A stretch of 32,000 bases of DNA, taken from assembly GCA_016205145.1 (NCBI GenBank), contig JACQJH010000001.1, positions 330,001-362,000 of the forward strand, given 5' to 3'. The stretch comes from Candidatus Iainarchaeum sp. (GTDB lineage: Archaea > Iainarchaeota > Iainarchaeia > Iainarchaeales > JACQJH01). The translations under genes were made by a program, and so were the position numbers. The notes under the pieces are model-generated. The model was not told the DNA's origin. It ran no database searches and saw nothing but the letters and a program-made list of their open reading frames with translations. Shown here one piece after another: positions 3,295 to 29,406 of the stretch (the first letter of the stretch is position 1; each line of letters opens with the position of its first letter).

Positions 3295-4053
3295 TCACGA
3301 GAACATCGGCGTCTGCACTGTCTTGTCCTCAAGCTTTTTTATTTCATCGCCCGTTTTTTTCATTGCGCCAAGGTGCGAGAGCAAAGCCTTCTCCGTTTCC
3401 TTCGCCTCCTTGAGCAGGGGAGCGATGTCAAGCCCCAGTCCGGACATTTCGTCAAGCTTTTTCAGCAATACCGCGGCAGCCTTGTAGTCCGCGGAAATCT
3501 GGACCCTGCCGAGAAGTGAGACTGCCTGGATGTCCTTGTCCATCAGATCAAGCATTATGAGCGCATTCACGCCGGTCGTGATGCCCTCGTTTATGATTTC
3601 AACGCCGTTTTTTTCCAGGAAATCCTTTGCCCTGGCATTCGAGGCTATGCCGTAGATTTTTTCCTTTTCCTCTTCCTCGGTCTTTATGCCGGCAAGGGAA
3701 ACCACTCTTTCAATGCCCTTGCCCTCGATCCAGTCCACGAGTTCCCTGGCAAAAATCCAGACAAGGTTCTGCGGAATGAGCTGCTCTGCAATGATCACTG
3801 CAAGCTTTTTCCTGTCGTTGACGTAAAGCCTCGACGGGTGCACGGGCCTGCCGCCGTGAATCCTGATGATCGGAACGAACGCGTTGGAATCCACGAACCC
3901 GATCTGCTCGAAATCAAGCTTTTCGACAAGGTATTTCGCGGCAATCGTGCCGACAAGGCCCATGCCGGGAAAGCCCTCAATGAGTGTATAACCTGAAAGG
4001 TTATGCTCGCCTTTTTCAACAAATTCAACCCAATACTTTTTCGATTCAGCCAA
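3295..4053 (-). CDS. PAC2-family proteasome assembly chaperone-like protein (COG1938)
   Basis: The N-terminal LIEGFPGMGLVGTIAAKYLVEKL... pattern and ~250-aa length are typical of archaeal PAC2 proteins. The start is TTG at 4053, because an in-frame stop lies 2 codons upstream. Confidence 0.75.
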   Translation of the reverse strand: MAESKKYWVEFVEKGEHNLSGYTLIEGFPGMGLVGTIAAKYLVEKLDFEQIGFVDSNAFVPIIRIHGGRPVHPSRLYVNDRKKLAVIIAEQLIPQNLVWIFARELVDWIEGKGIERVVSLAGIKTEEEEKEKIYGIASNARAKDFLEKNGVEIINEGITTGVNALIMLDLMDKDIQAVSLLGRVQISADYKAAAVLLKKLDEMSGLGLDIAPLLKEAKETEKALLSHLGAMKKTGDEIKKLEDKTVQTPMFS

Positions 4054-4108
4054 GGGAAATCACAATATAAGAAGAGTTTCAGTGTTTTTTAATTTATGTT
4101 TTTTTCGC

Positions 4109-4245
4109 CGGTTTCGTCCGGCTCGCCGTCACGTCCGGGCGCGTTTTCGACCGCGCGTGCCGAAACCAAGGCATATTGCTACGCAATATGCCGAGTATTC
4201 CATTAAAGCGTCCGGGGTTTTGCAAGGGGTGCAACCCCTGCGTTT
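4109..4245 (+). repeat. Structured intergenic repeat element, copy 1 (candidate ncRNA or hairpin-ended MITE)
   Basis: It aligns block by block with 18612-18758. Shared blocks are CGGTTTCGTCCG, GCCGTC.CGTCCGG and CGAA(A)CCAAGG. It has a 10-bp hairpin at 4170-4192 (GGCATATTGC-TAC-GCAATATGCC) and a GC hairpin at 4222-4241 (GCA-A-GGGGT-GCA-ACCCC-TGC). No credible ORF is present. Confidence 0.75.
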
Positions 4246-4315: not shown

Positions 4316-5248
4316 TCAAAAGAACATGCCTGCCGCAAAATACGCAAGAAAGCCCGCCGGAAGCATGAACGCAGCATACAAACAGCCTTTCTTCCAGTCC
4401 TTTTCCTGGAATCCGAGGAATGCGGAGGCAAGAATGGCATACTCGGCAATGTACGCCTGGCTGCCGAGAACCGCGGCGTCAAACAATTGTTTCCTCTGCT
4501 CCGCCGGAACGCCTAAGCCGAATTCCGCGAACTCCGAAAAATGCATTCCAGACACCATCGAAATTATCATGCCAAGAATGGCCGGAACTATAATTGCGCC
4601 GGCAAAAAGCAGGGTATATTTTTGGACTAAAAGGCCCGCCTGCCGTTCCCTGAAAGCGGAAGCGGTTTCAAGCAAATCCTCGGCGGTTTCCCGGAACACG
4701 GCTGACATGTCGGCGCCGCTTTCATAGCCGTGCAGCAAAAGGTTCAAAGCCCGGTCCGCGATTGCGCTGTCCGCCCTCTCCGAAAAATCCGCGAACGCCT
4801 GCGCAACGCTTTTTCCCGCGGTTATTCCTGCGGCGCATTTCCCGAACTCCTTTCCAAGCCCGCCGAATTCCTCGGAAGCGAACGCTTCAAGGGTTTTTGC
4901 CATTGGCGTTTTAGGCGGGAAAACCGATGCCTGCAAAAGCAGGTCCGGAATCATTTCCTCCATTGCCCGGCGCCTGACGCCGAACCGGTAAAGCACGGCA
5001 AACGACCTTGATGCGAGCGGCACGAAAAGCAATGCAATGCAAGCAAACAGAATGTGCCCGGCTGGAAGTTTCAGCAAAAACAGCACTCCGAAAAACGCGG
5101 CCGCAAGGCCCGCGCCTGAAAGCAGGTTTTCCGAAACAAACGATTCAAAGGTTCTGCCTTTCACGCAAAGCAGTTTTCCGCAAAACGAGCGCATTGCACG
5201 CTTTCCAAAAACGGTTTCAAAAAATTTTTCCAGCCGCAAGCATTCCAC
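4316..5248 (-). CDS. Type II secretion system F-domain membrane protein (TadC/FlaJ-half-like)
   Basis: 310 aa, polytopic. A cytoplasmic helical T2SS-F-like segment (SVAQAFADFSERADSAIADRALNLLLHGYESGADMSAVFRETAEDL) is followed by TM helices. It is the last gene of the ATPase operon. Confidence 0.6.
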   Translation of the reverse strand: MECLRLEKFFETVFGKRAMRSFCGKLLCVKGRTFESFVSENLLSGAGLAAAFFGVLFLLKLPAGHILFACIALLFVPLASRSFAVLYRFGVRRRAMEEMIPDLLLQASVFPPKTPMAKTLEAFASEEFGGLGKEFGKCAAGITAGKSVAQAFADFSERADSAIADRALNLLLHGYESGADMSAVFRETAEDLLETASAFRERQAGLLVQKYTLLFAGAIIVPAILGMIISMVSGMHFSEFAEFGLGVPAEQRKQLFDAAVLGSQAYIAEYAILASAFLGFQEKDWKKGCLYAAFMLPAGFLAYFAAGMFF

Positions 5249-5270: not shown

Positions 5271-6104
5271 CTATTGCATGAACGCCGGCGCCTGGCTTTT
5301 CACGAAAAGGAATACCGCCATGTCGAGCAGTGGAAAGCCCGCAATGCAGGCGAGCAAAACCTGCATCGGAGAAAACGAGACTTTCAAAAACGCGCTGCCC
5401 ACAATCACGAACACCAAGAACATTGCCGGAACAATCGCGGAGACAACGACAAAGACAAGCGACAGCATTGCAAGCTTTGCCGAAAATTCTTTCGCCTGCG
5501 CCCTCTGCCTTGACAGGATTTCCGAGGAAACGCGCCTGATTGCCCCGGCTGATTCCGCCGGAGAACCGGAATTGTACGCGAACGCAAGCTGTGCGCACGC
5601 GCGCCTGAGGCTCCTTGACGAAAACCTGTTGCCCAAATCGAACAATGCATTCCGCATGCCTTTTCCCTTATGCCTTGTCTCTGCAAGCAGCCTTGAAAAC
5701 TCCCTGGACACAATTCCATAATTCCTGTTGGAAACGTTTTCCGCGCATTTCTCGAACGCCAGGCCGAGGGACAGCTCGACGGCAAAATCGTTCAACGCGA
5801 ACGGAAGCTGGCTTTCGACAAGCTGGCTTCGCCTTTTCCCCGCCCCTGCCGGTTCGACAAAAGAAAGGAACACGAATGCCAATGCACCGGCGGCAAGCAT
5901 TGCACCCAATCCAAGCACAGCGCTTTTCAGGTACAATCCCGCCAAAAGCCACGCAAACAATCCGGCCAGCGCCGACGATTTCGCATTCCGCGCAAAAAAC
6001 GCCTTGGCATCCGGCCTCTCGTTTCCGGCCGCGAAAAGCCTTTTTTCGGTTTCAACGCAAAGCAATGCGAACCGTTTTTGCACGCCGGCATGCAGGGCTT
6101 TCAT
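5271..6104 (-). CDS. Type II secretion system F-domain membrane protein (TadB/FlaJ-half-like)
   Basis: 277 aa with TM helices flanking a helical T2SS-F-like segment. Its ATG overlaps the ATPase stop (ATGA at 6101-6104), which indicates translational coupling. Confidence 0.6.
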   Translation of the reverse strand: MKALHAGVQKRFALLCVETEKRLFAAGNERPDAKAFFARNAKSSALAGLFAWLLAGLYLKSAVLGLGAMLAAGALAFVFLSFVEPAGAGKRRSQLVESQLPFALNDFAVELSLGLAFEKCAENVSNRNYGIVSREFSRLLAETRHKGKGMRNALFDLGNRFSSRSLRRACAQLAFAYNSGSPAESAGAIRRVSSEILSRQRAQAKEFSAKLAMLSLVFVVVSAIVPAMFLVFVIVGSAFLKVSFSPMQVLLACIAGFPLLDMAVFLFVKSQAPAFMQ

Positions 6105-8630: not shown

Positions 8631-11600
8631 TTATTTACGGGTAGCTGAGCTTAGGGTAGTTTTTTTTTTACCCCCTCTGATGTAGAGGTATCCCGCGACC
8701 AGGACAATGACTATGACTGCGATGCCCGCAATCAGGCCGGTGTTGTCCTGCTTCGGTGCCGGCGCGCTTGGCTTTCCAGCAACTGGCGCCTGCTCAGCTG
8801 CGCATGTGCCTGCCTTGCAGACCTTGCCATCCTCACACCAGGTTCCATCAAGCGCAGTGCTGTATTCGCACTGGCCCGTATTCCTGTTGCAGCTGGCTGT
8901 CTGGCAGGTTATCGCAGCGCACCTGACTCCGGTGCACAGGTTCTCCTGCTCGACGACACTTGTTACCGCCGGGGCAGAATAGTCCTGCAAAACCGCCTTG
9001 TTCAGGCTTGACCTGACCTGGTAGCTGATTGTGACCGATTCGCCTGCAAGGACTTCCGGAACCGTAAACTTCAGCACCGGGTCATCCTTGACAACTTCAA
9101 ACGCATAATTTGCGTTGATTATCTTTGAAGCCGTCATTGCCACGCTTTTCGGCACGAACTCTATTATTTCAATGTTCTTCCAGTCCTTGTCGGTCGTGTT
9201 CGAGATTGTCGTCTCAATAGTGCTGGAATACGTTGTGGCCTTTCCGCCGCCGGAAGTTTTCTCAACCGTCAGGGACCTTGTCACTTCCATCTTGGAAGCG
9301 GTGTCCTCCGCCGTTGCGACCGCCTGCTCGTCGGTTATGCCCGCTTCTGACAACGTGCTTTGCACCGATTCGACTGTCGGCATTCCAGTTGTGGAACCGC
9401 TGACAACTGTTTCAGTGCTCTGCGGCGAAGTGGTTGTTGTGCCGCTTGACGTCGTGCCGCTGGAAGTGCTGCTCGAACTTGACGTCGAACTGCTGCTTCC
9501 GCCGGTCACGAACACGACATTCGTGGACGTCACGGCACTGTTAATGTCCGAATAGTCCTGGGCCTTCACATAATATGTACTCGTTCCAGTCGGAATTCCG
9601 CTGTATATGAACGTGTAAGACCTGTTCGCAGTTTCGACCCAGGTAGTGTTGTCCTCGCTGAGCCAGTACTTTTCGACTCCGCTGACAACATCCGTTCCAT
9701 TGAAGTCAATGGTTATGGATGCGGCATTCACCTGCGTTCCCGCAGCCGGCGAATTGATCTGGACCGTCGGGTTCGTCGAATCGTTGATGATTATCGACGT
9801 GACAGACTTGTTCCAGTCGCCGAGCCTGTTGATGTCGCCGGTCTGGCCGCCTGAGAACCTGTTATAGTCTGGAATGTGGCCAGCGATATTTGTGGCATTC
9901 ACTTCGACTATGACAAAGTACCTTGCCGCGGACAGGTTGGCTGCGTTGAAGTCAACAGTGCAGTTGGTGTCCTGCTTGTATGCTCCATAAGTGCAGCGCA
10001 GACCGCTGCCCCTGATTCTTGGTGTAATTGGTTTCGATCCTGCATTATAATCCGAGTTATAATCCCATCTGTAATTCTGGTCCCTGTTAAGGACGTTCGC
10101 GTCCCAGGAAACAATGTTTATGTCTCTTGTGGTTCCGGTTGACGACAGCCAGACAACAAAGTTGTAGTCTTGTATGCTGTTGTAGTCGCCTACAGTGATG
10201 CTTCCGGCCTTGTTCCAGTCAACATTGACTGGGAAATGCACGTTGAAGTCCACTGAAATGTTCCTGTCGTATGCAGGCGCACTCGCGTTGGCAGTAACGT
10301 TGGCGTCGTTGCCGAAGTTCCTTGCGCCGAACGTGAAATTCACGTCAACGATGTTTATGTCCGGCGGGTTAATCCTGACAAGCGGGCTTGAGAATATGAG
10401 CCAGTTGCCGTCGGATTGCCTTAAGTTGACGTCAATGTAGTACATGCCCGGGAGGACTTTTGCTATATTGAAGTCCACTGTGCATGTATTGACGGTTGCC
10501 GCATTGCTGTCCGAATCCGTGCAGTAAACCCTGCCATTTTGCGAGTCGGTTGTAGCGCCGCTCTGCGTGAGGCCGTACTGTCCACCGAGAACGGACAACG
10601 TGTTCGTGTCGTTGAACAGCAGCAGGTTGCCATCGCCCGGGTTCTTTGACAGGTATATTCCTGTGACTATGTTGACGTCCCATGAATTAAGGTCGCTGGC
10701 GTTGCTGTCAACGAAAGTGAACGTGAAACTCGCGTTCTCATCCGCATTCGCCGAAGTCATGCCCACTCTCCTGCTCCTGAACGCCTGGTTGGCGGTGATA
10801 GTCAGATTCGCGTCAATGTTGAAGATCGCGTAAGCCGAAAACGTGCTTACCCTGAACGAGAAGTTTCCGTCGCCCCTTGCGGGATTGTATGCCCAGGTCT
10901 GCACTCCGGTTTGGGTGTCGCTGTGCGATTCCGCCAGCGTGCTTCCATCCTGGTTTGTGCAGATGCCTGCCGGGCACTTCTTGTTGTTCCTTGCAATGAC
11001 AGGCATGTTCGGGTTTCCTGTAACCACATAGTACCAGAAGACGTTCGCGTCAATCTGGAATTCGGGGAAGGACTCCGAGTTGAAGTTGAAGTCCTTGCGG
11101 TTGTTTGAAATGCCGTTGCTTGTGTAGTTCCTGTTCGCCCCTTTTGAAAAGTTTATGTCAGAATTCATTTTGATGACAATCGCCCTTGCAGTGGATGTCG
11201 CGGGGTCGCCGAACTGGACAATTATTCCCTTGACCGCCTGCGTGTTGTCAATATATTTATGCTCTATTGCATCCTGCATTGGCATCCTTGTCTTTGTCGA
11301 GGCCCTGCTGTCGCCGCTATAACATGTGCGGGCACTTGACTGGTTCAGGTCCTTGTCGCAGATAAGGACAGTTATGTTCACGTCTGTTGGAAACTGCAGT
11401 TTCGGCGTGACGACAAGCATTGAGTTGGTGTCAGCCAATGTTGAAAGATATACTGTTCCAAGGTATTGGGCATTGATGTTCGTGTCCGTTACGCCGATTG
11501 AGCCGAGCGTGACAACGCTTGAACTCGGTATGATGATGTTTACGTCAAAGTTTCCGTTTGCATCCGGGAAGATTATTGACTTGTTGAAGTCGGCAAGCCT

Positions 11601-12494
11601 TGCGGTTGTCACGAATTTCTGGCTTTCGAAGTATCCCAACATATCGTTATAGTTTGCGTCCTTGTCTTTCAGGCCAAGCGATGCTGCCGCTGTCGGACCT
11701 GAGGGAATGTTCCTGTCAGCGAAAATCCAAGGCTGCATGTAGTTAACATCTATTATAGTGTTTATGTCCCACTGCGAGCCGTTATGGTCAACGTATCTCA
11801 AAAGTATTCCCTGGTTAGTGTCAACCGGGAAACCGTAGCCCTGCACGAGTATGTTTGAGTCAATCTGGCCAACGGGCGTTCCCGCATTAATCCTTAAGTA
11901 TGGCGCAACCAGGAAGTTTGCGTCAGCGTAAGAGCCTGCTATTCCATTCGTGTCCGGTATGCACGTTGCCGCGCTGTTTTCGGTTGTGACAAGCGCCTTC
12001 CAGACCTGCACCAGGATTTCCTCGTTTTTCCATGCTGCTCCCGGGATTGTCAGGTTAGCGTCAAATCTTCTTGTGCCGCTGTTTGCTATTGTTGTGGTGT
12101 CATTGACATCTATAACGTCCATGGACCTTGTCGTGAAGCCATAGCTTGAGCAGCTGCCCTCGGTTACGGTGACTTTGCGTACTATTCTGTCGATTTGATT
12201 GAGGTCTGCGGTGTTTCCGTCGTTTATGGTGAGGTTGAAGTCTGTTGTTGTACCGCCGCTGACCGAACTGTTGAAGTCAAGGTATACGTTCCGCATCGGA
12301 TAGTACAGCCTTACAAAGTAGTAATAGCTGTTTGAGTCCGCGTCAATGTTGGTAACTATGAGGTTGAAGTCCTCGCCCCTGCTTGCGAACATCGCGCCGT
12401 TGTTGTCCTGCGCGTAAGCGCTTGCAGTCGCATGCGCCGACGCAATCATAAAAAACAGAATAGCGAGTGCTATCAGATACTTTGAAACTTTCAT
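8631..12494 (-). CDS. Giant cell-surface protein (~1287 aa): signal peptide, Asp/Asn/Thr-rich beta-type repeats, Ser/Thr linker, Cys-rich stalk and C-terminal TM anchor
   Basis: ATG 12494 is preceded by GGAGGT with 7-nt spacing. The signal peptide is MKVSKYLIALAILFFMIASAHA. The Ser/Thr linker is at 9384-9503, a 9-Cys module at 8802-8936, and the TM GLIAGIAVIVIVLVAGYLYI at 8679-8738, followed by RGGKKK. Confidence 0.85.
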   Translation of the reverse strand: MKVSKYLIALAILFFMIASAHATASAYAQDNNGAMFASRGEDFNLIVTNIDADSNSYYYFVRLYYPMRNVYLDFNSSVSGGTTTDFNLTINDGNTADLNQIDRIVRKVTVTEGSCSSYGFTTRSMDVIDVNDTTTIANSGTRRFDANLTIPGAAWKNEEILVQVWKALVTTENSAATCIPDTNGIAGSYADANFLVAPYLRINAGTPVGQIDSNILVQGYGFPVDTNQGILLRYVDHNGSQWDINTIIDVNYMQPWIFADRNIPSGPTAAASLGLKDKDANYNDMLGYFESQKFVTTARLADFNKSIIFPDANGNFDVNIIIPSSSVVTLGSIGVTDTNINAQYLGTVYLSTLADTNSMLVVTPKLQFPTDVNITVLICDKDLNQSSARTCYSGDSRASTKTRMPMQDAIEHKYIDNTQAVKGIIVQFGDPATSTARAIVIKMNSDINFSKGANRNYTSNGISNNRKDFNFNSESFPEFQIDANVFWYYVVTGNPNMPVIARNNKKCPAGICTNQDGSTLAESHSDTQTGVQTWAYNPARGDGNFSFRVSTFSAYAIFNIDANLTITANQAFRSRRVGMTSANADENASFTFTFVDSNASDLNSWDVNIVTGIYLSKNPGDGNLLLFNDTNTLSVLGGQYGLTQSGATTDSQNGRVYCTDSDSNAATVNTCTVDFNIAKVLPGMYYIDVNLRQSDGNWLIFSSPLVRINPPDINIVDVNFTFGARNFGNDANVTANASAPAYDRNISVDFNVHFPVNVDWNKAGSITVGDYNSIQDYNFVVWLSSTGTTRDINIVSWDANVLNRDQNYRWDYNSDYNAGSKPITPRIRGSGLRCTYGAYKQDTNCTVDFNAANLSAARYFVIVEVNATNIAGHIPDYNRFSGGQTGDINRLGDWNKSVTSIIINDSTNPTVQINSPAAGTQVNAASITIDFNGTDVVSGVEKYWLSEDNTTWVETANRSYTFIYSGIPTGTSTYYVKAQDYSDINSAVTSTNVVFVTGGSSSSTSSSSSTSSGTTSSGTTTTSPQSTETVVSGSTTGMPTVESVQSTLSEAGITDEQAVATAEDTASKMEVTRSLTVEKTSGGGKATTYSSTIETTISNTTDKDWKNIEIIEFVPKSVAMTASKIINANYAFEVVKDDPVLKFTVPEVLAGESVTISYQVRSSLNKAVLQDYSAPAVTSVVEQENLCTGVRCAAITCQTASCNRNTGQCEYSTALDGTWCEDGKVCKAGTCAAEQAPVAGKPSAPAPKQDNTGLIAGIAVIVIVLVAGYLYIRGGKKKTTLSSATRK

Positions 12495-12501
12495 GTTTTT
12501 G

Positions 12502-12561
12502 ACCTCCACCACAATCCGGAAACGGAATTTTCGTTATTAATAAAGCAGTTTTATTTAAATA
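12502..12561 (-). promoter_or_regulatory. Putative promoter and Shine-Dalgarno site of the giant surface-protein gene
   Basis: On the minus strand, TATTTAAATA (12552-12561) and TTTATTAATAA (about 12531-12545) are TATA-box-like. GGAGGT (12502-12507) lies 7 nt before the ATG. Confidence 0.45.
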
Positions 12562-16341: not shown

Positions 16342-16353
16342 CAAGCCTTGTTT

Positions 16354-16485
16354 TTATTCCCACTCTATTTCGTCGCCCTGGCGCGTGCCCTTCGCCTTTC
16401 CGGCGGGCAGTTCGATGAAGTATTTCGCGGCCTTTTTTCCGGGCATGGTTTGGCGTGAACGCCAAAGGGCTTCAGGAGCTGTCGC
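16354..16485 (-). pseudogene. Duplicated, frameshifted 3' fragment of the DUF192 gene
   Basis: 16354-16437 aligns with 17028-17111. The 51 nt at 16387-16437 are identical to 17061-17111, and the 33 nt that include the stop codon have 7 mismatches. Copy A has T6 where copy B has T5, which shifts the frame. Upstream, weaker similarity remains (LKPFG vs LQPFT). Confidence 0.75.
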
Positions 16486-16488
16486 AAT

Positions 16489-16611
16489 TCAGAGCTTCCC
16501 TATCGCGGTCAAAAGCTTTTCGTGGCCTTTTATGAGCCTGTTGAACTCTTCAAGTTCTTCGGAAACAATCCTGCTCTTAATGCTGTCTTTCAAATTTTCT
16601 GATTTTGCCAT
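16489..16611 (-). CDS. 40-aa helical small ORF overlapping the 3' end of the Doc gene (candidate cognate partner or antitoxin)
   Basis: Hand translation gives MAKSENLKDSIKSRIVSEELEEFNRLIKGHEKLLTAIGKL*. The ATG at 16611 lies 35 nt inside the Doc ORF in another frame. The ORF is too short for the ORF track, and no family was recognised. Confidence 0.35.
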   Translation of the reverse strand: MAKSENLKDSIKSRIVSEELEEFNRLIKGHEKLLTAIGKL

Positions 16612-16975
16612 TTTTTATCCACTCCGTTATCTCCGAATCCGAATAATGGTTTTCCCTTATGCCAAGCAAAATTTTGGCATTTTCGGGGTTGTCGGGTATT
16701 GCCGTGCGGCAATTGTTTTCCGCCAGAAAATATTTCATTGCAATGAACGCCGTTCTTCTGTTGCCGCTGGCAAAGGCATGGCCTTGAACGAGGCATTTCA
16801 GGAGAACCGCAGCTTTCGCGTAAATGTCCCCGTCAAGCTTCCTGCAATTCTCGACGGCCTCTGAAAGCTTTGCCCTGCTTAAAACCTTTGCCGAATCAGA
16901 TTTCTTCGCCTTCAGAACGCTCAACGCCAAAACATTGAATTCTATGATTTTGTCGGGCGAAGGGTATGAAATCAT
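16577..16975 (-). CDS. Doc (death-on-curing)/Fic-family toxin-like protein
   Basis: AAVLLKCLVQGHAFASGNRRTAFIAMKYFLAENN matches the Doc core (HxFxxxN[KG]R plus RTA). ATG 16975 (MISYPSPDKIIEFN...) is preferred over the TTG at 17014. An AT-rich TTTTTATTA lies just upstream on the minus strand. Confidence 0.75.
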   Translation of the reverse strand: MISYPSPDKIIEFNVLALSVLKAKKSDSAKVLSRAKLSEAVENCRKLDGDIYAKAAVLLKCLVQGHAFASGNRRTAFIAMKYFLAENNCRTAIPDNPENAKILLGIRENHYSDSEITEWIKNGKIRKFERQH

Positions 16976-17027
16976 AAGTATTCTATTCTCCCCCGGCTTA
17001 ATAAAAATATCCAAAGGCAGCAGGCCT

Positions 17028-17387
17028 TTACTCCCATTCTATTTCATCGCCCAACCGCGCGCCCTTCGCCTTTCCGGCGGGCAGTTCGATGAAGTATTTC
17101 GCGGCCTTTTTCGGCGTGTAATTCGGGGTGAACGGCTGGAGGCTTTCTGCGATGTCCACAACCTTTCTGTTCGAGTCGAGGAAAATTATGTCAATCGCGA
17201 AGAACACGAACATCATGTGCACGCTTGCCCCGATTTTGGATTCGGAGTCAAGCACGAAAACAAGGCCGTAATCGAATTTTTTCGTGTCCTCGAACATGAG
17301 GCCGCGCAGTTTGTCCCAGGAAGCGGAAATGACCTTGGACTTTGCAATGATTTTTGTTTTGCGGGTTTTGTTGAAAATCATCCGCAA
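17028..17387 (-). CDS. DUF192 (COG1430) family protein
   Basis: 119 aa. GLMF...D.....MFVFFAIDIIFLD....V......L.PF......KAAKYFIELPAG fits my recollection of DUF192. Confidence 0.65.
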   Translation of the reverse strand: MRMIFNKTRKTKIIAKSKVISASWDKLRGLMFEDTKKFDYGLVFVLDSESKIGASVHMMFVFFAIDIIFLDSNRKVVDIAESLQPFTPNYTPKKAAKYFIELPAGKAKGARLGDEIEWE

Positions 17388-17663: not shown

Positions 17664-17782
17664 TTGTACCAACAAAACAATCGCTTTCAGGCTTTTAAAT
17701 GATATCCTTTTAAAAGCTATTAAAAGAATAAACTTTACAACCGGCTTCGGAAAAAAAACCGGTTTTTTTTTGGTGCGGCCAA

Positions 17783-18481
17783 ATGGAACTATCCTCGGTT
17801 GCTTTCATTCCCGACGGAAACAGGCGGTATGCCGTCAGCAATGGCATTTCCCTGGCGGAAAGCTATGCCTTGGGCACGCAGAAGGCATGGGATGTGGTCA
17901 AATGGCTTTCAGATTACCCGAAAATAAGGGTGGGCACGTTTTACACGCTTTCCCTGGAAAACCTCACGCGCAAAAAATCCGAGCTCAAGCTGCTTTTCAA
18001 AATCTTCGAGAAACAGCTGGACAGGGTTGAAGGCAACAGCCTGCTTGAAGAGCACCAGGTGAAACTGAACTTTGTCGGTCGCACGGACCTCCTGCCGAAA
18101 ATAGTGCAGGACAAAATCGCAAAGGCCGAGAAATGCACGGAAAACTTTTCCGACAAGACAATAAACTTGGCAATCGGCTACAATGGCCGGACCGAAATAG
18201 TCGACGCGGCCAAGGCAATCGCCCAAAAATTCGCGCGCGGAAAAATAAGCCTCGACCAGATAGACGAGGACTCGTTCAAGGACTACCTGTACAGGGGCTC
18301 TTTCGACCCGGACATGATAATCAGGACTTCCGGCACGCAGCGCCTTTCAGGCTTTCTCACATACCAGAGCGTTTACTCCGAACTCTACTTCTGCGACAAG
18401 TTCTGGCCCGAATTCTCGCGCACCGACCTTGACAGGGCGATTGCGGACTACGATGAAAGGCAAAGGCGCTTCGGAAAATAA
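17783..18481 (+). CDS. uppS: cis-prenyltransferase (undecaprenyl/polyprenyl diphosphate synthase)
   Basis: VAFIPDGNRRYA, LSLENL.R, IGYNGR.EIV, IRTSG..RLSGFL.YQS.YSELYF and the C-terminal RRFGK are all canonical UppS motifs. Confidence 0.9.
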   Translation: MELSSVAFIPDGNRRYAVSNGISLAESYALGTQKAWDVVKWLSDYPKIRVGTFYTLSLENLTRKKSELKLLFKIFEKQLDRVEGNSLLEEHQVKLNFVGRTDLLPKIVQDKIAKAEKCTENFSDKTINLAIGYNGRTEIVDAAKAIAQKFARGKISLDQIDEDSFKDYLYRGSFDPDMIIRTSGTQRLSGFLTYQSVYSELYFCDKFWPEFSRTDLDRAIADYDERQRRFGK

Positions 18482-18536
18482 GGCCGAAACGCAAAAGTTA
18501 AATGCCTTCTCCCGAATAATTTCTTTCTGCCATTCT

Positions 18537-18609
18537 AGCCCCGTAGTCTAGTGGCCAAGGATTCGAGGCTCTGGACCTCGAGACGAGAGTTCGAATCTCT
18601 CCGGGGCTA
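18537..18609 (+). tRNA. tRNA-Gln (anticodon CUG), no encoded CCA
   Basis: Hand-folded cloverleaf. The acceptor stem is AGCCCCG/CGGGGCT with discriminator A. The D stem is GTCT/GGAT with GG in the loop. The anticodon stem is CGAGG/CCTCG with loop CT-CTG-GA. The variable loop has 4 nt. The T arm is GAGAG-TTCGAAT-CTCTC. Confidence 0.93.
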
Positions 18610-18611
18610 AG

Positions 18612-18790
18612 CGGTTTCGTCCGCAGCCGTCTCGTCCGGCTGGTACGAACCAAGGCGTATTGCTGATCGCAATACGCCGGGTATGCTGTTTGTGCATAAG
18701 TGGTATTGCGCAAGCAATACCACGCAAGGGGTTTGCAAGGGGCGCTAGCCCCTGCGTTGTGACACGCCGAGTAAGCCGGCCTTTTTTTTT
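18612..18790 (+). repeat. Structured intergenic repeat element, copy 2, immediately 3' of tRNA-Gln and ending in a T10 run
   Basis: It shares the blocks of 4109-4245. Hairpin A is at 18654-18678 (GGCGTATTGC-TGATC-GCAATACGCC). An extra hairpin B is at 18700-18723 (GTGGTATTGC-GCAA-GCAATACCAC). Hairpin C is at 18735-18755 (GCA-A-GGGGC-GCTA-GCCCC-TGC). The T10 run is at 18782-18791. Confidence 0.75.
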
Positions 18791-18900
18791 TAGGAACCCA
18801 AAAAAGAAACCGCGGCATACTACTTTCTGCCGTATGCCACTGCCTAGCTCGGCTGGTTTTTGTCTGTTTGGCATTGTAAAGAATTCGGATTATTTTTTTT

Positions 18901-19548
18901 TCAGTCCGCATGGCCGTATTTTGCCTGCACTTGTCCCGGGGCCGAAACGGTTGGCGGCTCTGCGCGGTAAATCAGCCAGATAAAATCTACCTGTCCATCG
19001 GATTCTTCAATCGGCCCGTCCGCGATCCCGCCGTTCCAGTTGTCTAAAACGATTTTTCTTGCCGGGCCATAGGAATCGACTTTCCATTTCGTCCAGTCCG
19101 CGTCTTCAATCGCGGCAACGCTCCACTTTCCGGCCGAGCTGCTGAACTGCCATGTCCCGTCCGCGTTTATTTCGAGCCGGTGCCCTGTTCCGCTTCCCAC
19201 GTCCCCGCCTCCGCCCGCGTCATAAAACAGCCTTGAGGACAGGGCGCGCCATGAGCCGGCAAATTCCTGCGGATTTGACTGGCTTGCCTTGCCGGCTTCA
19301 ATGCCGGGAATTTCATCTTCTTCTGATGGAATGGCCGGAGGCGCATCGCTTTCATCTTCCGCAATCGCCTGTATTTCCTCGTTGTCGCTTGGCGGTGCAG
19401 GGGGCAGGTCGGAATCCTCTATTGCCGCTTGTTTGCCGCCTGCATCGGCACTTTTGGCGGTTTGCGGAAATTGTGTGCATCCTGCAAGCAGGATTAATGC
19501 AAGCAATGCCAATAATGCCAAATTTTTGAATTTCATTTTATCCATCAT
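18901..19548 (-). CDS. Secreted lipoprotein-like protein with an acidic Pro-rich repeat
   Basis: The signal peptide has a lipobox-like LLAGC (MMDKMKFKNLALLALLALILLAGC). A tandem acidic repeat reads EDSDLPPAPPSDNEEIQA / EDESDAPPAIPSEEDEIPG. Its start overlaps the upstream stop (ATGA at 19545-19548). Confidence 0.7.
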   Translation of the reverse strand: MMDKMKFKNLALLALLALILLAGCTQFPQTAKSADAGGKQAAIEDSDLPPAPPSDNEEIQAIAEDESDAPPAIPSEEDEIPGIEAGKASQSNPQEFAGSWRALSSRLFYDAGGGGDVGSGTGHRLEINADGTWQFSSSAGKWSVAAIEDADWTKWKVDSYGPARKIVLDNWNGGIADGPIEESDGQVDFIWLIYRAEPPTVSAPGQVQAKYGHAD

Positions 19549-20828
19549 CCCGCATCCTCAATATACCGCCTGCCTCTTGTTCCTTGCGGGGTTATTCCGG
19601 AATCTTGCGAGGCTGTTATTTCATCGGTTGATTCCGGTGCGGCTGGCGGCGCTTCCTCGCCGTCTTCGCTGCCAAGAATGCAGTCATCGGCAACTTTGAT
19701 CCAGTAGCCGGTTCCGGCATTAAGCTGGTCGCGCTTGTAGTAGCCCTGCGGCTTTCCGTTTTCAATGAACCCGCTGTAAGTGAGCGGGCCTTTGAGTATG
19801 CTGCAGCTCGTGTTTTTTGCAGTGTCGAACGATTTTTCCGTTTGGATGCTTATAAGGTTCCAGCCTTTTTTCAGCGCTATTGCCTGTTCGGACAGGAATT
19901 TGCCCGTATACTTTATTGTGCAGTCGCCGCTGGCGCTTTTCGGGCTGGCCCTTTTGGCCCACAGGCCTTTTCCGATGAGGCTCTTGTCTTTCAGGTCAGT
20001 GACTTTCCGGTACTTGCCGTTTTCCTTGTCGTAGTAATAGAATTTTGAAACGCATGAATGGTTCTCGCTTGAAATTTCTGCGTATGGCACGCCGACAAGG
20101 CTCCATGTCCAATCCAGCGCGAACCTCAGTTCCCGCTCGGTGCCGGTTGCGGCTTGCGCCTGCTTGAAGCACCTGCCTGTTGAGTCAACAACAAGCCCGC
20201 CATTGCAGGTCTTTCCGTTCGGGGGCGCGGCGCCGCATGCGTATAACCCCTCGCAGCCGCAAAGAATGTACCCTGTGCGGTCCCAAACGGTCCCGTTCTT
20301 GCACGAAGTGTCTTGTGCCGGCGGGGTTGGTGCGGGTGCCGGGCTTGGAGCCGGAGCAGGGGCCGTGCCGGCCTTGGAGGAAGCTTTCACTGTCACAGCC
20401 GCATAATCGTTCGCGCCATTCTTGCACGTAATGTCGGTGAAGCAGTAGCCGCCGCTGCAGACAACGTCATCCAAAAAAATTTTGGCCGACACCTTGTAGT
20501 CGACGTCCTTGCCTGAGGCTTTGTAAGTGCAGTATGCGCCCGAATACGACAGAGTTGTGCTTGTGTAAGCAGCAATCCTTGCAGTCACGGCATCCTCGTT
20601 CGCGCCGGGCAAGGCGTTTCCCGCATTGCAGTTCACTTCGACTTTGGTATTGCCGTTGAAACCGCCTGCAAGCCCTTCGCCGAAAACCGTGACCCTTCCG
20701 GCATTCGCGCCGTAATCGTTGTCAATATCGACAATGGCCGGCGTTGCGGAAACATCGCAGCTTGCCGCGGACGCAAAAGCCGCGAACAATGCAACAAACA
20801 TCAAAAAAGCAATGGGTTTACCAAACAT
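19545..20828 (-). CDS. Secreted Cys-rich protein (427 aa)
   Basis: The Sec-type signal peptide is MFGKPIAFLMFVALFAAFASA. GGAGG lies 8 nt upstream of the ATG. It has an APAPAPSPAPAPTPP linker, many Cys residues and an acidic C-terminal tail. Confidence 0.75.
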   Translation of the reverse strand: MFGKPIAFLMFVALFAAFASAASCDVSATPAIVDIDNDYGANAGRVTVFGEGLAGGFNGNTKVEVNCNAGNALPGANEDAVTARIAAYTSTTLSYSGAYCTYKASGKDVDYKVSAKIFLDDVVCSGGYCFTDITCKNGANDYAAVTVKASSKAGTAPAPAPSPAPAPTPPAQDTSCKNGTVWDRTGYILCGCEGLYACGAAPPNGKTCNGGLVVDSTGRCFKQAQAATGTERELRFALDWTWSLVGVPYAEISSENHSCVSKFYYYDKENGKYRKVTDLKDKSLIGKGLWAKRASPKSASGDCTIKYTGKFLSEQAIALKKGWNLISIQTEKSFDTAKNTSCSILKGPLTYSGFIENGKPQGYYKRDQLNAGTGYWIKVADDCILGSEDGEEAPPAAPESTDEITASQDSGITPQGTRGRRYIEDAG

Positions 20829-27059: not shown

Positions 27060-27872
27060 TCAAAGCAGTATTTCCGCTTTCCTTAAGTCCTCGCGCGAGT
27101 TCACGTTCAGGTAGACGCCCTGGAAAGGGTAGCCGAACAGCAGCCGTTTTTCCGCAAGCTTGGGAAACAAATCCCGCTCGATGTTCTCCATGTTCCTTGA
27201 AACGTATTTGAAGATTTCCGGCTCGAAAATGAAGTAGCCTGCGTTGACGAGATAGCTTTGCACGTTTTTTGTCGGCTTCTGCACGAAGTCGACTATGTTG
27301 TTTCCTTCAAGCGTCGCAACCCCGTACTTTTTCGGGTTGCTCACTGTTGTGAGGGCAACGGTTGCGATCGCCTTGTTCTTTCGGTGGAACGAAAGCATGT
27401 CGTTGAGGTTGATTGAGGTTATGGTGTCGCCGTATGCCACCAGAAAAGTGTCCTTCAGCCTTGCCTTTGCCTTGAGCAAAGGGCTTATGGTTCCGGTCGG
27501 CCTGTCGCCTTCGATGAAGTCCACTGCGTAAGGCGGGCTTTTCGCCCTGATGCCTGAAATGATTTCCTCGGCATTGCTGTCAACGTAGACCAGGAAATTG
27601 TTGACGTTGAATTCGTGGATGGAGTCCATTACCGTCTGGAGCAGGGCCTTGTCGTTTATTTTTTCGAGGAATTTCGGCCTGCCGTTCCACAGCAGTTCGC
27701 TTTTCCTTCCGCCCGCGAGCACAAGCGCCTGGCTGAGCCTGAAGTCGGAGAGGATCTTGCTTAGAAGGCTTTCCATTGCCTGGCTCCGGCTCCTGATGCT
27801 TGTGCCGTCCACAAGCCTGTCGACCTGCTCAAGCAGGTCCTTCTTGATAGTTATGGTCGCCCTGACTCTCAT
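27060..27872 (-). CDS. Fusion of an N-terminal ribbon-helix-helix (CopG/NikR-like) DNA-binding domain with a sugar-phosphate nucleotidyltransferase-like domain
   Basis: Residues 1-45, MRVRATITIKKDLLEQVDRLVDGTSIRSRSQAMESLLSKIL, give the classic RHH beta-alpha-alpha pattern. The rest is NTP_transferase-like (VAYGDTITSINLNDMLSFHRKNKAIATVALT...KKYGVATLEGNNIVDFVQKP...LVNAGYFIFEPEIF). The P-loop-like signature is a variant, LAGGRKSEL. Confidence 0.7.
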   Translation of the reverse strand: MRVRATITIKKDLLEQVDRLVDGTSIRSRSQAMESLLSKILSDFRLSQALVLAGGRKSELLWNGRPKFLEKINDKALLQTVMDSIHEFNVNNFLVYVDSNAEEIISGIRAKSPPYAVDFIEGDRPTGTISPLLKAKARLKDTFLVAYGDTITSINLNDMLSFHRKNKAIATVALTTVSNPKKYGVATLEGNNIVDFVQKPTKNVQSYLVNAGYFIFEPEIFKYVSRNMENIERDLFPKLAEKRLLFGYPFQGVYLNVNSREDLRKAEILL

Positions 27873-27990
27873 GCCATCAAGCCCCAGAAATATTTGATGC
27901 TGACTCGGCGGCCTGCGTCAGCAGGCTGCCTTGGTTCCGGACCAGCCGGACGGAAGCGGCTGACGGCGGTTGGTGCGGTTTTCGCCTTTT

Positions 27991-28026
27991 TCATATTGTA
28001 TCATATATCATATGAGCCAATCATAC
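27991..28026. promoter_or_regulatory. Cluster of four TCATA(T/C) repeats upstream of ugd (candidate operator)
   Basis: TCATAT occurs at 27991, 28001 and 28008, and TCATAC at 28021. The cluster lies just upstream of TATA-like CTTTTAATGG (28026-28035) and GTTTATAT (28055-28062) and of the ugd ATG at 28081. It sits in the divergent intergenic region shared with the RHH-fusion gene. Confidence 0.35.
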
Positions 28027-28080: not shown

Positions 28081-29406
28081 ATGAAAAAGGTGTGTTGTTT
28101 GGCGAATGTGAAGAACGTGTGCGTTGTGGGAACGGGTTACGTCGGTTTGGTTGCGGGCGCCTGCTTCGCCGACATGGGCCACAACGTAACGTGCGTCGAC
28201 ATAGACGAGAGGAAGATTTCGATGCTCAGGGCCGGCAAAATCCCGATTTTCGAGCCGGGCCTCGGGGAACTTGTCAGGAGAAATTCCGCCAACGGGAGGC
28301 TTTCGTTCACGACAAGCCTGCCTGAAGCGGTCGGCAAATGCGCCATCATTTTCATTGCCGTCGGCACGCCTCCCAAGGAGGATGGCACCGCCGACCTGTC
28401 TTTCGTGCGCGCGGTTGCGAAGGAAATAGCCTTGTCAGCGAAGGAGCCGAAAATCGTGGTTGAAAAGTCCACGGTTCCGGTTGAAACCGGCGAGATGGTC
28501 CTTGAAATCCTGGCCGCGAACTCGCACGGCAATGTTTCGTTCGAGGTCGTTTCCAACCCGGAATTTTTGCGCGAGGGCTCCGCTGTCGGCGATTTCATGA
28601 AGCCCGACAGGATTGTCGTTGGCACGGATTCTGAGCATGCGCGGAAGGAGCTGGGGGAATTGTACGCTCCGCTCAAGGCAAAAATCCTGTTCACCGACAT
28701 AAAGAGCGCGGAAATAATCAAGCATGCCGCCAACTCGTTCCTTGCCACGAAGATTTCGTTCATCAATTCGGTTGCAATGCTTTCCGAGGCCGTCGGCGCC
28801 GACATAAAGCTTATCGCGGAAGGCGTCGGCCTGGACAGCCGCATCGGCCCCAAGTTCCTGAACGCGGGCATAGGCTACGGGGGCAGCTGTTTTCCAAAGG
28901 ACGTTTCGGCGTTCATCCAGATAGCGGACAGGCATGGCGTAAATTTTTCAATACTCAAGGAAGTGGAAAACGTAAACAAGGGGCTGAGGCCGCTTTTCGT
29001 CGGGAAAATCGAAAAGGCGGTCGGAGGGGTCAAGGGCAAAAAAATAGCTGTCTTGGGCCTTGCCTTCAAGCCGGACACTGATGACATGCGCGAGGCCCCG
29101 AGCGTGGACATAATCAGCGCTCTCGCTGAAAAGGGCGCCAGGGTTTTTGCATTCGATCCAGAGGCGGAAGAGCGCGCAAAAAGCCTTATAAGTTCCGGCA
29201 ATGTTTCGTATTGCGGCAACGAGTTTGACGCGATTCAGGATGCGGACGCGCTTGTAATCCTTACGGAATGGCCGCAGTTTGCAAAACTCGACCTGGCCAG
29301 GGTCAAGTCTGCCTTGAAATCGCCGGTAGTGATTGATGGCAGGAACATCTTCGAAAAGGCGGAGATGGCAAGGCGCGGTTTCACTTACGTTTCAATCGGA
29401 AGGTAA
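28081..29406 (+). CDS. ugd: UDP-glucose 6-dehydrogenase
   Basis: VCVVGTGYVGLV, FIAVGTP, EKSTVPV, NPEFLREG, GIGYGGSCFPKD (catalytic Cys) and LGLAFKPDTDDMREAP are all canonical. A GTG at 28108 (MKNVCVVGTGYVG) is an alternative start. Confidence 0.92.
   Translation: MKKVCCLANVKNVCVVGTGYVGLVAGACFADMGHNVTCVDIDERKISMLRAGKIPIFEPGLGELVRRNSANGRLSFTTSLPEAVGKCAIIFIAVGTPPKEDGTADLSFVRAVAKEIALSAKEPKIVVEKSTVPVETGEMVLEILAANSHGNVSFEVVSNPEFLREGSAVGDFMKPDRIVVGTDSEHARKELGELYAPLKAKILFTDIKSAEIIKHAANSFLATKISFINSVAMLSEAVGADIKLIAEGVGLDSRIGPKFLNAGIGYGGSCFPKDVSAFIQIADRHGVNFSILKEVENVNKGLRPLFVGKIEKAVGGVKGKKIAVLGLAFKPDTDDMREAPSVDIISALAEKGARVFAFDPEAEERAKSLISSGNVSYCGNEFDAIQDADALVILTEWPQFAKLDLARVKSALKSPVVIDGRNIFEKAEMARRGFTYVSIGR

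Follow-up and report, generated by a model that had tools for sequence, protein, structure and literature searches.

We analysed a 32-kb stretch of a Candidatus Iainarchaeum genome (contig JACQJH010000001.1, positions 330,001 to 362,000; all 32,000 nucleotides (nt) are called the window here, and positions are counted from its first letter). Directly 3′ of the tRNA-Gln gene lies a structured element of about 170 nt. The window also codes for a PAC2 proteasome chaperone, undecaprenyl-diphosphate synthase (UppS), a geranylgeranyl reductase and archaeal type IV pilus genes, and the gene order DUF192, a small open reading frame (ORF), UppS, tRNA-Gln is conserved among relatives. The element is real and non-random, and it belongs to a small, previously undescribed, lineage-restricted family. 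A core of about 66 nt occurs in three unrelated contexts in the window, and therefore this core is the conserved unit.

The tRNA-Gln gene does not encode CCA. Its discriminator base, A18609, is followed by AGC, and GGTTTCG reads from position 18613. An earlier note on this DNA had placed the element 3 nt after the discriminator, with no T-run before a stretch of ten Ts (T10), and the sequence bears this out: the element begins 2-3 nt past A18609, and a scan for runs of at least four Ts found none between tRNA-Gln and T10. There is also no AT-rich promoter-like tract between tRNA-Gln and the element, and a T-run check of the UppS gene found no oligo-T of its own. The TATA-like box upstream is the presumed tRNA-Gln promoter, judging from archaeal TATA-to-start spacing; its GTTAAATGCC is kept at the same place in two related loci, L003 and L005 (L numbers denote sequences from relatives). 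T10 is presumed to terminate a transcript of tRNA plus element, by analogy with known oligo-T termination by archaeal RNA polymerase. Because the TATA-like box is conserved, no oligo-T precedes T10 and no promoter-like tract intervenes, co-transcription of the element with tRNA-Gln is the natural inference, and a plausible one.

Table 1. Features of the window, in order of position. R1 and R2 are the covariance models described in the text; hp, hairpin.
Feature	Position	Strand	Evidence or remark
Copy 1, hp0 (GCCGG-TTTCGT-CCGGC)	4107-4122	+	kept in L038/L039
Copy 1, core	4139-4203	+	scores 83.8 and 80.7 bits with the covariance models
Copy 1, G-rich module (GGGGTTTTGCAAGGGG-TGCAA-CCCCTGCGTT)	4214-4244	+	repeat family D17
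UppS gene	17783-18481	+	directly precedes tRNA-Gln
TATA-like box (AAAAGTTAAATG)	18493-18504	+	about 35 nt 5′ of tRNA-Gln
tRNA-Gln(CTG)	18537-18609	+	ARAGORN (18536-18610); Rfam RF00005, 61.8 bits at 18537-18609
Copy 2, hp0 (GCGG-TTTCGT-CCGC)	18611-18624	+	begins 2 nt past discriminator; sequence reading
Copy 2, core	18624-18689 (model match 18623-18689)	+	80.5 bits (R1), 67.9 bits (R2)
Copy 2, 90-nt segment missing from the L005 orthologue	18680-18769	+	flank comparison of window and L005
Copy 2, hpA′, perfect 10-bp hairpin with GCAA loop, paralogue of hpA	18700-18723	+	hairpin search
Copy 2, G-rich module (U2; GCAAGGGG-TTT-GCAAGGGG-CGCTAG-CCCCTGC-GT)	18724-18757	+	found in copy 1 too
Copy 2, second tail (ACGCCGAGTAAGCCGGCC)	18764-18781	+	matches the tail directly after hpA in L005
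T10, first oligo-T 3′ of tRNA-Gln	18782-18791	+	T9 at the equivalent place in L005 and L003
Terminator region of convergent minus-strand gene	18792-18838	-	hairpin GGCATAC..GTATGCC, then GCGGTTTCTTTTTTGGGTTCC
Copy 3, core	27896-27962 (model match 27896-27961)	-	45.1 bits, E = 1.6e-9 (R1); 74.2 bits (R2)

The core opens with a hairpin of 4-6 base pairs (bp) whose loop is complementary to the linker that follows. After this linker come CCAA, then a second hairpin, of 10 perfect bp, and finally a tail that resembles GAGUAAGC and has the form G(A/G)GUA(A/U)GC. In the copy behind tRNA-Gln (copy 2), the first of these hairpins, hp1, pairs CAGCCG (18624-29) with CGGCTG (18637-42) around the loop TCTCGTC, and the linker is GTACGAACCAA. 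The 10-bp hairpin, hpA (18654-18678), has the loop TGATC and leads into the tail GGGTATGC. A pseudoknot is possible between TCGT (18632-35) in the hp1 loop and ACGA (18645-48) in the linker. A further hairpin, hp0, precedes the core. Its loop TTCG is also complementary to CGAA at 18646-18649, its L003 form is GCGG-TTTCGC-CCGC, and copy 1 and L038 have the compensated stem GCCGG...CCGGC.

The rest of copy 2 is made of accessory modules. Its 90-nt segment is bounded by a 6-nt direct repeat, ACGCCG (18674-79 and 18764-69), and holds a small hairpin (TATGC 18682-86 with GCATA 18694-98), the hairpin hpA′ and a G-rich module. The earlier note was right about the hpA′ hairpin (GTGGTATTGC-GCAA-GCAATACCAC), about the tandem GCAAGGGG (starting at 18724 and 18735) and about a hairpin module duplicated inside the element, the two being hpA and hpA′. 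L038, the orthologue of copy 1, carries hpA′ as GTGGTATCGC-TGT-GCGATACCAC, with a compensatory T:A to C:G change. Both L008 and L003 have related forms of the G-rich module 3′ of tRNA-Gln, with one identical 17-mer in common despite saturated synonymous sites. Where the whole segment of about 170 nt had been described as the repeat, its anatomy was correctly drawn, but the conserved unit is the core and the remainder is mosaic.

Compared with dinucleotide shuffles, the full copy-2 stretch folds with z = -4.4. The only perfect hairpins of at least 10 bp in the window (4170-4192, 18654-18678 and 18700-18723) all lie inside elements, and stem/loop combinations with stems of at least 8 bp number 14, against 0-8 in 20 shuffles.

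Copy 1, also reported earlier, does exist. It occupies about 4107-4245 on the plus strand, between the PAC2 gene and a T2SSF pilus gene, and a TATA-like tract (4085-4097) precedes its hp0. Its hp1 pairs GCGCG (4139-43) with CGCGC (4152-56) around the loop TTTTCGAC, the linker reads GTGC-CGAAA-CCAA, hpA (4170-4192) has the tail GAGTATTCC, and the pseudoknot would join TTTCG (4145-49) to CGAAA (4161-65). Both copies claimed are thus present, but a third, on the minus strand, had been overlooked. Read on that strand, copy 3 consists of CAGCCG-CTTCCGTC-CGGCTG, GTC-CGGAA-CCAA, GGCAGCCTGC-TGAC-GCAGGCCGCC and GAGTCAGC, with TTCCG able to pair with CGGAA. It lies between two divergent genes, one for a ribbon-helix-helix/nucleotidyltransferase (27060-27872, minus strand) and one for a UDP-glucose dehydrogenase (28081-29406, plus strand), in the intergenic region. 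It is co-oriented with the minus-strand gene and ends about 25 nt before its ATG (27872), with no T-run after it. An exact-protein look-up of this neighbour returned only contigs identical to the window.

Copy 3 was detected by a covariance model (R1) that represents what copy 1, copy 2 and L005 have in common (alignment A3), with copy 3 itself excluded. The same model detects L003 (26.8 bits) and L038 (22 bits), and it gave no match in the genomes of more distant relatives. A second model (R2), built from all six sequences (copies 1-3, L003, L005 and L038), found no copies beyond those six. Three cores within 32 kb, in three contexts, make up the kind of dispersed, mosaic palindromic family known from repetitive extragenic palindromes (REP) and bacterial interspersed mosaic elements (BIME). 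The module combinations are mosaic as well: hpA, hpA′ and the G-rich module are differently combined in the window, L003, L005 and L038.

Base pairing is maintained while the sequence changes. All 10 pairs are Watson-Crick in the five sequences of the hpA/hpA′ family, and 5 of the 10 are altered on both sides; copy 3 adds three further compensated pairs and one A.C. A six-sequence alignment (A4) has 20 pairs, is 93.7% paired, and has both sides altered at 13 of these 20 pairs. This level of pairing was reached in 0 of 500 shuffles, and structures slid by 1-3 columns pair at just 26-46%. Loop and linker also change in step, as TTTCG/CGAAA in copy 1, L005 and L003, TTCCG/CGGAA in copy 3, GCTC/GAGC in L038 and TCGT/ACGA in copy 2. 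Each loop class pairs longest with its own linker (4-5 bp, versus 2-4 bp with non-cognate linkers of other classes); random loops would do so with a probability of 0.02-0.10 per class, the four classes coming from six sequences and not being independent. The loop-linker helix is 85.7% paired in A4 (six sequences, all pairs Watson-Crick). These pairings fit an H-type pseudoknot in which stems S1 and S2 would have 4-6 and 4-5 bp and loops L1 and L3 would have 1 and 3-4 nt. Over 32-33 nt of core, the window and L005 are 91% identical, versus 61% at UppS third codon positions. The core is thus conserved beyond neutral drift, which points to constraint or to recent exchange between copies.

The relatives show how the family varies. 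In L005/L006/L030, whose UppS protein is 81% identical, the flanks are the same (AGC after the tRNA, T9-AGGAACCCAAAAAAGAAACCG), and between them lie about 75 nt: a hairpin, GTGCCGAAACCAA, a 10-bp hairpin whose stem is compensated (GTACTGC/GCAGTAC), and GAGTAAGC. Copy 2 differs from this in its 5′ hairpin and in the 90-nt insertion. L003/L041 (UppS 96%) retain the first hairpin and the 16-mer linker; a 7-bp stem then stands in place of hpA and closes three other perfect hairpins, followed by T9 and the G-rich module. L038/L039, orthologous to copy 1 (PAC2 94%), have hp0, the GC hairpin, another linker (GTGGAGCCTT), a changed hpA′ and the G-rich module, and end in a terminator pair, T8 on the plus and T7 on the minus strand. 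The tRNA-linked copy of L005 combines a copy-1-type hp1 with a copy-2-type hpA, and the hp1 stem is common to copies 2 and 3; exchange between copies is evident from these combinations. The accessory modules (hp0, hpA′ and the G-rich module) would have been gained, lost and swapped through recombination and microhomology-bounded indels.

Linkage of the element to tRNA-Gln is present in the window, L003/L041 and L005/L006 and absent from L042-45, L046, L048 and L049. In these four other Iainarchaeia lineages a T-run follows tRNA-Gln after 7 nt (L042-45), 1 nt (L048) or 5 nt (L049), and in L046 the tRNA is followed by an unrelated 45-nt hairpin insert and then by CTCCGGGGCTA, a repeat of the tRNA 3′ end (3823-3880). 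L008 (UppS 64%) has an analogous but unrelated structured trailer of two tandem hairpin-linker-hairpin-T5 units. There, 5825-5977 is a 63-nt tandem duplication, 97% identical, 3′ of tRNA-Gln; each unit has a hairpin, a 14-nt linker, a hairpin, CGGTAATA and T5, and the second opens with a G-rich hairpin. In L048 (GCA_030648175.1, 3694-3809), tRNA-Gln is split in its D-loop region by an intron of about 41 nt and was missed by ARAGORN, and an ORF for a LAGLIDADG endonuclease lies between UppS and this tRNA.

Wider searches added little to this distribution. The linker 16-mer GTGCCGAAACCAAGGC gave 12 chance matches in viral contigs, 11 of them evidently inside coding-like sequence, and the module patterns gave nothing there except one coding chance match. 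Among 16 matches of GTGCCGAAACCAAGGCNTAY in metagenome contigs, only L030 (the L005 contig) was real. The G-rich-module pattern occurred in only one of 185,579 species genomes, that of L008. With spurious ORFs spanning the elements as queries, a word-index protein search returned only the ORF of L003, and an exhaustive search of 1.84 billion proteins returned nothing relevant. On these searches the family is confined to close relatives whose UppS protein is at least 81% identical. In the literature searched, no element of this kind has been described for Iainarchaeota or DPANN.

We put at about 0.5 the probability that copy 2 is a member of a lineage-specific, interspersed family of structured, mosaic elements in one narrow Iainarchaeia clade (DPANN). 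Its most likely role would be generic, as a module for RNA end protection, termination or processing, or it may have none beyond its own persistence. Several points weigh against this reading. The window holds no transposase or integrase to explain the dispersal. Alignment A4 was fitted to helices 1 and 3 of the model and not to the pseudoknot helix, and it comprises just six sequences in about four variant classes. The L3 of the pseudoknot, at just 3-4 nt, is sterically tight. Since all pairs are Watson-Crick, the same hairpins and pseudoknot can form on the antisense strand or in single-stranded DNA; the antisense strand folds with equal or better z-scores, and the sole non-canonical pair, the A.C of copy 3, would be a G.U on the opposite strand. 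Finally, a strong terminator is missing from copy 1, and copy 3 lacks any terminator.

Because every pair is Watson-Crick, the strand cannot be assigned from wobble pairs. It is assigned solely by context, namely by the oligo-T at the same end in four loci and by the position right after the tRNA. In the window, L005, L003 and L038, a run of T8-T10 stands immediately at the element's 3′ end.

In archaea, transcription is initiated under the direction of a TATA box and terminates at oligo-T, and tRNase Z cleaves after the discriminator of tRNAs without an encoded CCA. From the layout of the locus we infer how copy 2 might be expressed. RNA polymerase would start near 18526 from the TATA-like box, or read through from UppS, and continue through tRNA-Gln and the element to T10. 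A cut by tRNase Z after A18609 would then release a hairpin-rich trailer of about 170-180 nt with a 5′ monophosphate.

That the element is a dedicated functional partner of the tRNA, as had been proposed, is not supported. The same core lies at two loci without a tRNA (4139-4203 and 27896-27961). Nor does the partnership extend across relatives, given the early T-runs of L042-45, L048 and L049 and the unrelated insert of L046. L005 has identical flanks and lacks 90 nt of copy 2, a pattern that the earlier note had itself named as the mark of an insertion. Since most relatives lack the element and L005 has the core only, tRNA-Gln does not need it; for this reason a partnership specific to the tRNA ranks, in our view, below a generic role or no role.

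The covariation across three helices would also fit a dedicated family of small trans-acting or protein-binding RNA genes, in which each core is a functional small RNA (sRNA) with its own promoter (at 4085-4097 for copy 1 and near 28005-28015 for copy 3), and the tRNA locus is a case of piggy-backing in which tRNase Z makes the 5′ end. Such an RNA would work through two invariant single-stranded stretches, AACCAAGG and GAGUAAGC. Unpaired AACCAAGGC is indeed invariant in 5/6 copies, TATA-like tracts lie 40-50 nt 5′ of the cores of copies 1 and 3, oligo-T closes the 3′ end in four loci, and the tRNA-sRNA precursors of Nanoarchaeum are a precedent (PMC3491384). However, the distribution is extremely narrow, modules differ even between strains with 96% identical UppS, L038 lacks AACCAAGG, no target or partner protein is identifiable, and copy 3 runs into a gene without a terminator. 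The lack of wobble pairs is also unusual for an old functional RNA. We consider sRNA genes unlikely, though they are the alternative that we take most seriously.

The perfect Watson-Crick stems look different if only DNA matters. The repeats might be selfish or neutral DNA and nothing else, palindrome-rich miniature mobile or REP-like units handled as single-stranded DNA by a transposase encoded elsewhere, with any transcripts as by-products. Folding is strand-symmetric, copies sit in three unrelated contexts and two orientations, and the mosaic structure, rapid module turnover and exchange among copies fit such DNA. REP and IS200/IS605 ends carry a short conserved motif at the hairpin foot, and here too a short conserved motif abuts a hairpin foot. 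The core, however, has no terminal inverted repeats or target-site duplications around it, and no transposase is encoded within the window. Three more points speak against purely selfish DNA: orthologous copies keep their loci in relatives with 81-96% identity, the orientation of the copies puts oligo-T at the same end in all four loci that have it, and loop-to-linker pairing is not known from REP or miniature mobile elements. We rank this reading next and hold it to be unlikely.

It is doubtful, and in our ranking lower again, that the 66-nt core represents a new Iainarchaeia-specific class of functional RNA, the candidates being a self-processing module or one that directs a nuclease or exonuclease. 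In this view the core would spread in the genome and, at this locus, use tRNA-Gln transcription and tRNase Z for its own expression and 5′ end.

The 3′ flank of a tRNA gene is also where integrative elements leave traces, and the earlier remark that such flanks are integration hotspots is upheld for the class, in which the tRNA-Gln 3′ flank is a target of recombination: L003 and L046 both carry repeats of the tRNA 3′ end that resemble attachment-site (att) scars. The whole sequence from tRNA to T10 might accordingly be a scar of site-specific integration into the 3′ end of tRNA-Gln. The degenerate repeat of L003, AATCCCTCCGGGCTAAGC (4879-4897, 17/19, 166 nt downstream), scored 26 versus 15 +/- 2.2 for shuffles under strict gap penalties, but p = 0.17 under looser ones. 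L046 has its repeat, CTCCGGGGCTA, after the 45-nt insert, and the genes at 18901-20828 are absent from L005. In the window, by contrast, there is no integrase and no repeat of the tRNA longer than 9 nt, its 3′ end included; a 3′-end repeat is seen only in L003 and L046, which speaks against an att scar at this locus. Derivation of the modules from the tRNA was rejected, since local alignments of copy-2 modules against shuffles gave no significant similarity to the tRNA, the L003 3′-end repeat being the exception. The same core at two tRNA-less loci and the lack of the motifs in viral contigs add to this, and an integration scar is improbable.

A compact, possibly pseudoknotted, multi-copy structure that starts 2-4 nt past a tRNA in three lineages might also be a self-cleaving ribozyme that forms the tRNA 3′ end, like the theta ribozymes, related to those of hepatitis delta virus (HDV), beside phage tRNAs, which are found within 5 nt of tRNAs (PMC10879173). 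HDV-like ribozymes have a nested double pseudoknot (P1, P1.1, P2, P3, with or without P4), a P1 helix starting at the cleavage site and a catalytic C first in J4/2 (PMC10879173), and this topology is lacking here. In manual threading, a P1-like pairing of GGTTTCG with CGAA(A)CC is possible in copies 1, 2 and L003, whereas the 5′ P1 strand is absent from L005 and copy 3. P2 has no pairing partner, the J4/2 candidates (GGGUAU or GAGUA) contain no C, and no HDV family matched in Rfam. No ribozyme family of any kind was matched at E up to 10 for copies 1 and 2 or E up to 5 for the relatives, and two copies are not beside tRNAs. A ribozyme is the least probable of these explanations, and very improbable.

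Other known classes fared no better. At Rfam 15 gathering thresholds only the tRNA reached threshold in the window. Permissive scans, extended to E = 10 for copies 1 and 2 and to E = 5 for L003, L005 and L038, gave only scattered matches far below gathering, none common to different copies. The earlier statement that C/D and H/ACA boxes are lacking agrees with a motif scan of the six copies: neither RTGATGA nor the relaxed NTGANGA occurs in any of them, and CTGA, which is not conserved, is confined to the hpA loop of copies 2 and 3. Archaeal C/D sRNAs have a C box (RUGAUGA) close to the 5′ end and a D box (CUGA) close to the 3′ end, besides C′ and D′, and form a kink-turn (k-turn). H/ACA sRNAs have a hairpin that holds a pseudouridylation pocket and a k-turn and leads to an ACA box; here the stems are perfect without internal loops, and ACA is absent from 5/6 copies. 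Coding potential was rejected on indels that are not multiples of three, on swapped modules and on the lack of homologues. The motifs or topology required by the consensus of an ORB-like (origin recognition box) origin, an integron attC-like site, a k-turn, loop-E and pistol are absent.

The surroundings of the locus have features of their own. Back-to-back with T10, the minus-strand terminator region (a hairpin plus TTTCTTTTTT) is recognisable also in L003, and 35/36 nt of it are the same in L005, though the minus-strand gene upstream differs there. Between this shared bidirectional terminator and the geranylgeranyl reductase gene, 18901-20828 on the minus strand holds two ORFs of 215 and 427 amino acids (aa), for which Pfam and NCBIfam gave no match and PHROG just a borderline one (E = 0.0099); in L005 the reductase gene comes straight after the terminator. 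Upstream, a perfect palindrome, A8-CCGG-T8 (17751-17770), sits 13 nt 5′ of the UppS start codon, in the divergent region between UppS and a small ORF on the minus strand. A direct repeat of 85 nt (16353-16437 and 17027-17111), with 92% identity, duplicates the 3′ end of the DUF192 gene (17028-17387, minus strand) and flanks a Fic/Doc-like toxin ORF (16577-17014, minus strand). Relatives have DUF192, the small ORF and UppS without Fic, which suggests that the Fic/Doc-like ORF between its repeats was inserted as a cassette. A 1293-aa ORF (8631-12512, minus strand), adjacent to the pilus and P-type ATPase genes, matches nothing in Pfam or NCBIfam.

The genomes of DPANN archaea are tiny and hold little non-coding DNA, and knowledge of their non-coding RNAs is close to nil. 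Here a repeated, co-varying and possibly pseudoknotted element, matching no known RNA family, lies within a predicted tRNA transcription unit of a genome of about 0.6 Mb. It would be one of two things: a new class of small RNA, expressed through tRNA processing, or a mosaic repeat of the REP/BIME kind, the first to be reported from DPANN. Either outcome bears on RNA 3′-end formation, tRNA processing and genome plasticity in these archaea. If the core is a functional RNA, it would be a non-C/D, non-H/ACA counterpart of the Nanoarchaeum tRNA-sRNA units. Practical value is modest at present, as the family is found in only a handful of closely related metagenomic contigs; its importance would rise sharply with a stable RNA, catalytic activity or a genome-wide family.

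Several known systems resemble parts of what we observe. Archaeal att scars share the position at the tRNA 3′ flank, where L003 and L046 carry tRNA-Gln 3′-end repeats; unlike such scars, the window has no such repeat or integrase, and the modules of the element are not tRNA-derived. The small RNAs from tRNA 3′ external transcribed spacers (ETS), such as 3′ETS-leuZ of E. coli, and eukaryotic tRNA-trailer fragments are freed by 3′ processing and can persist. Those trailers are short and unstructured and act by base pairing, whereas the one considered here would have about 170 nt and stable hairpins and belongs to a repeat family. Theta ribozymes beside phage tRNAs are likewise compact, pseudoknotted and a few nt from the tRNA 3′ end (PMC10879173), but our element lacks the nested double pseudoknot and the catalytic C, has a cellular archaeal host and occurs in copies away from tRNAs.

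For the tRNA linkage, the closest functional analogue would be Nanoarchaeum equitans, also of the DPANN, where tRNAs and C/D sRNAs share precursors and RNase Z makes the sRNA 5′ end (PMC3491384). In both cases a structured small RNA, predicted here from sequence alone, lies directly 3′ of a tRNA with no terminator between; the dicistronic arrangement is seen in the window as an element 2-3 nt past the discriminator, with neither terminator nor promoter in between. The element differs from the Nanoarchaeum units in having no C, D, C′ or D′ boxes and no k-turn, in being three times longer and possibly pseudoknotted, and in a core that also occurs away from tRNAs.

For the behaviour of the family, the bacterial REP/BIME mosaic would be the closest analogue. 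The element differs from it in its archaeal host, in perfect stems without the typical mismatches, in the possible loop-linker pseudoknot, in showing no GTAG-type 5′ motif or RAYT gene, and in the three copies known from the 32-kb window. REP/BIME units have tens to hundreds of copies per genome and an associated RAYT or Y1 transposase. They are short, interspersed palindromic units in intergenic or 3′-untranslated positions, arranged in mosaics with conserved linkers that vary between strains, and they are passively transcribed and can stabilise or terminate the transcripts that contain them.

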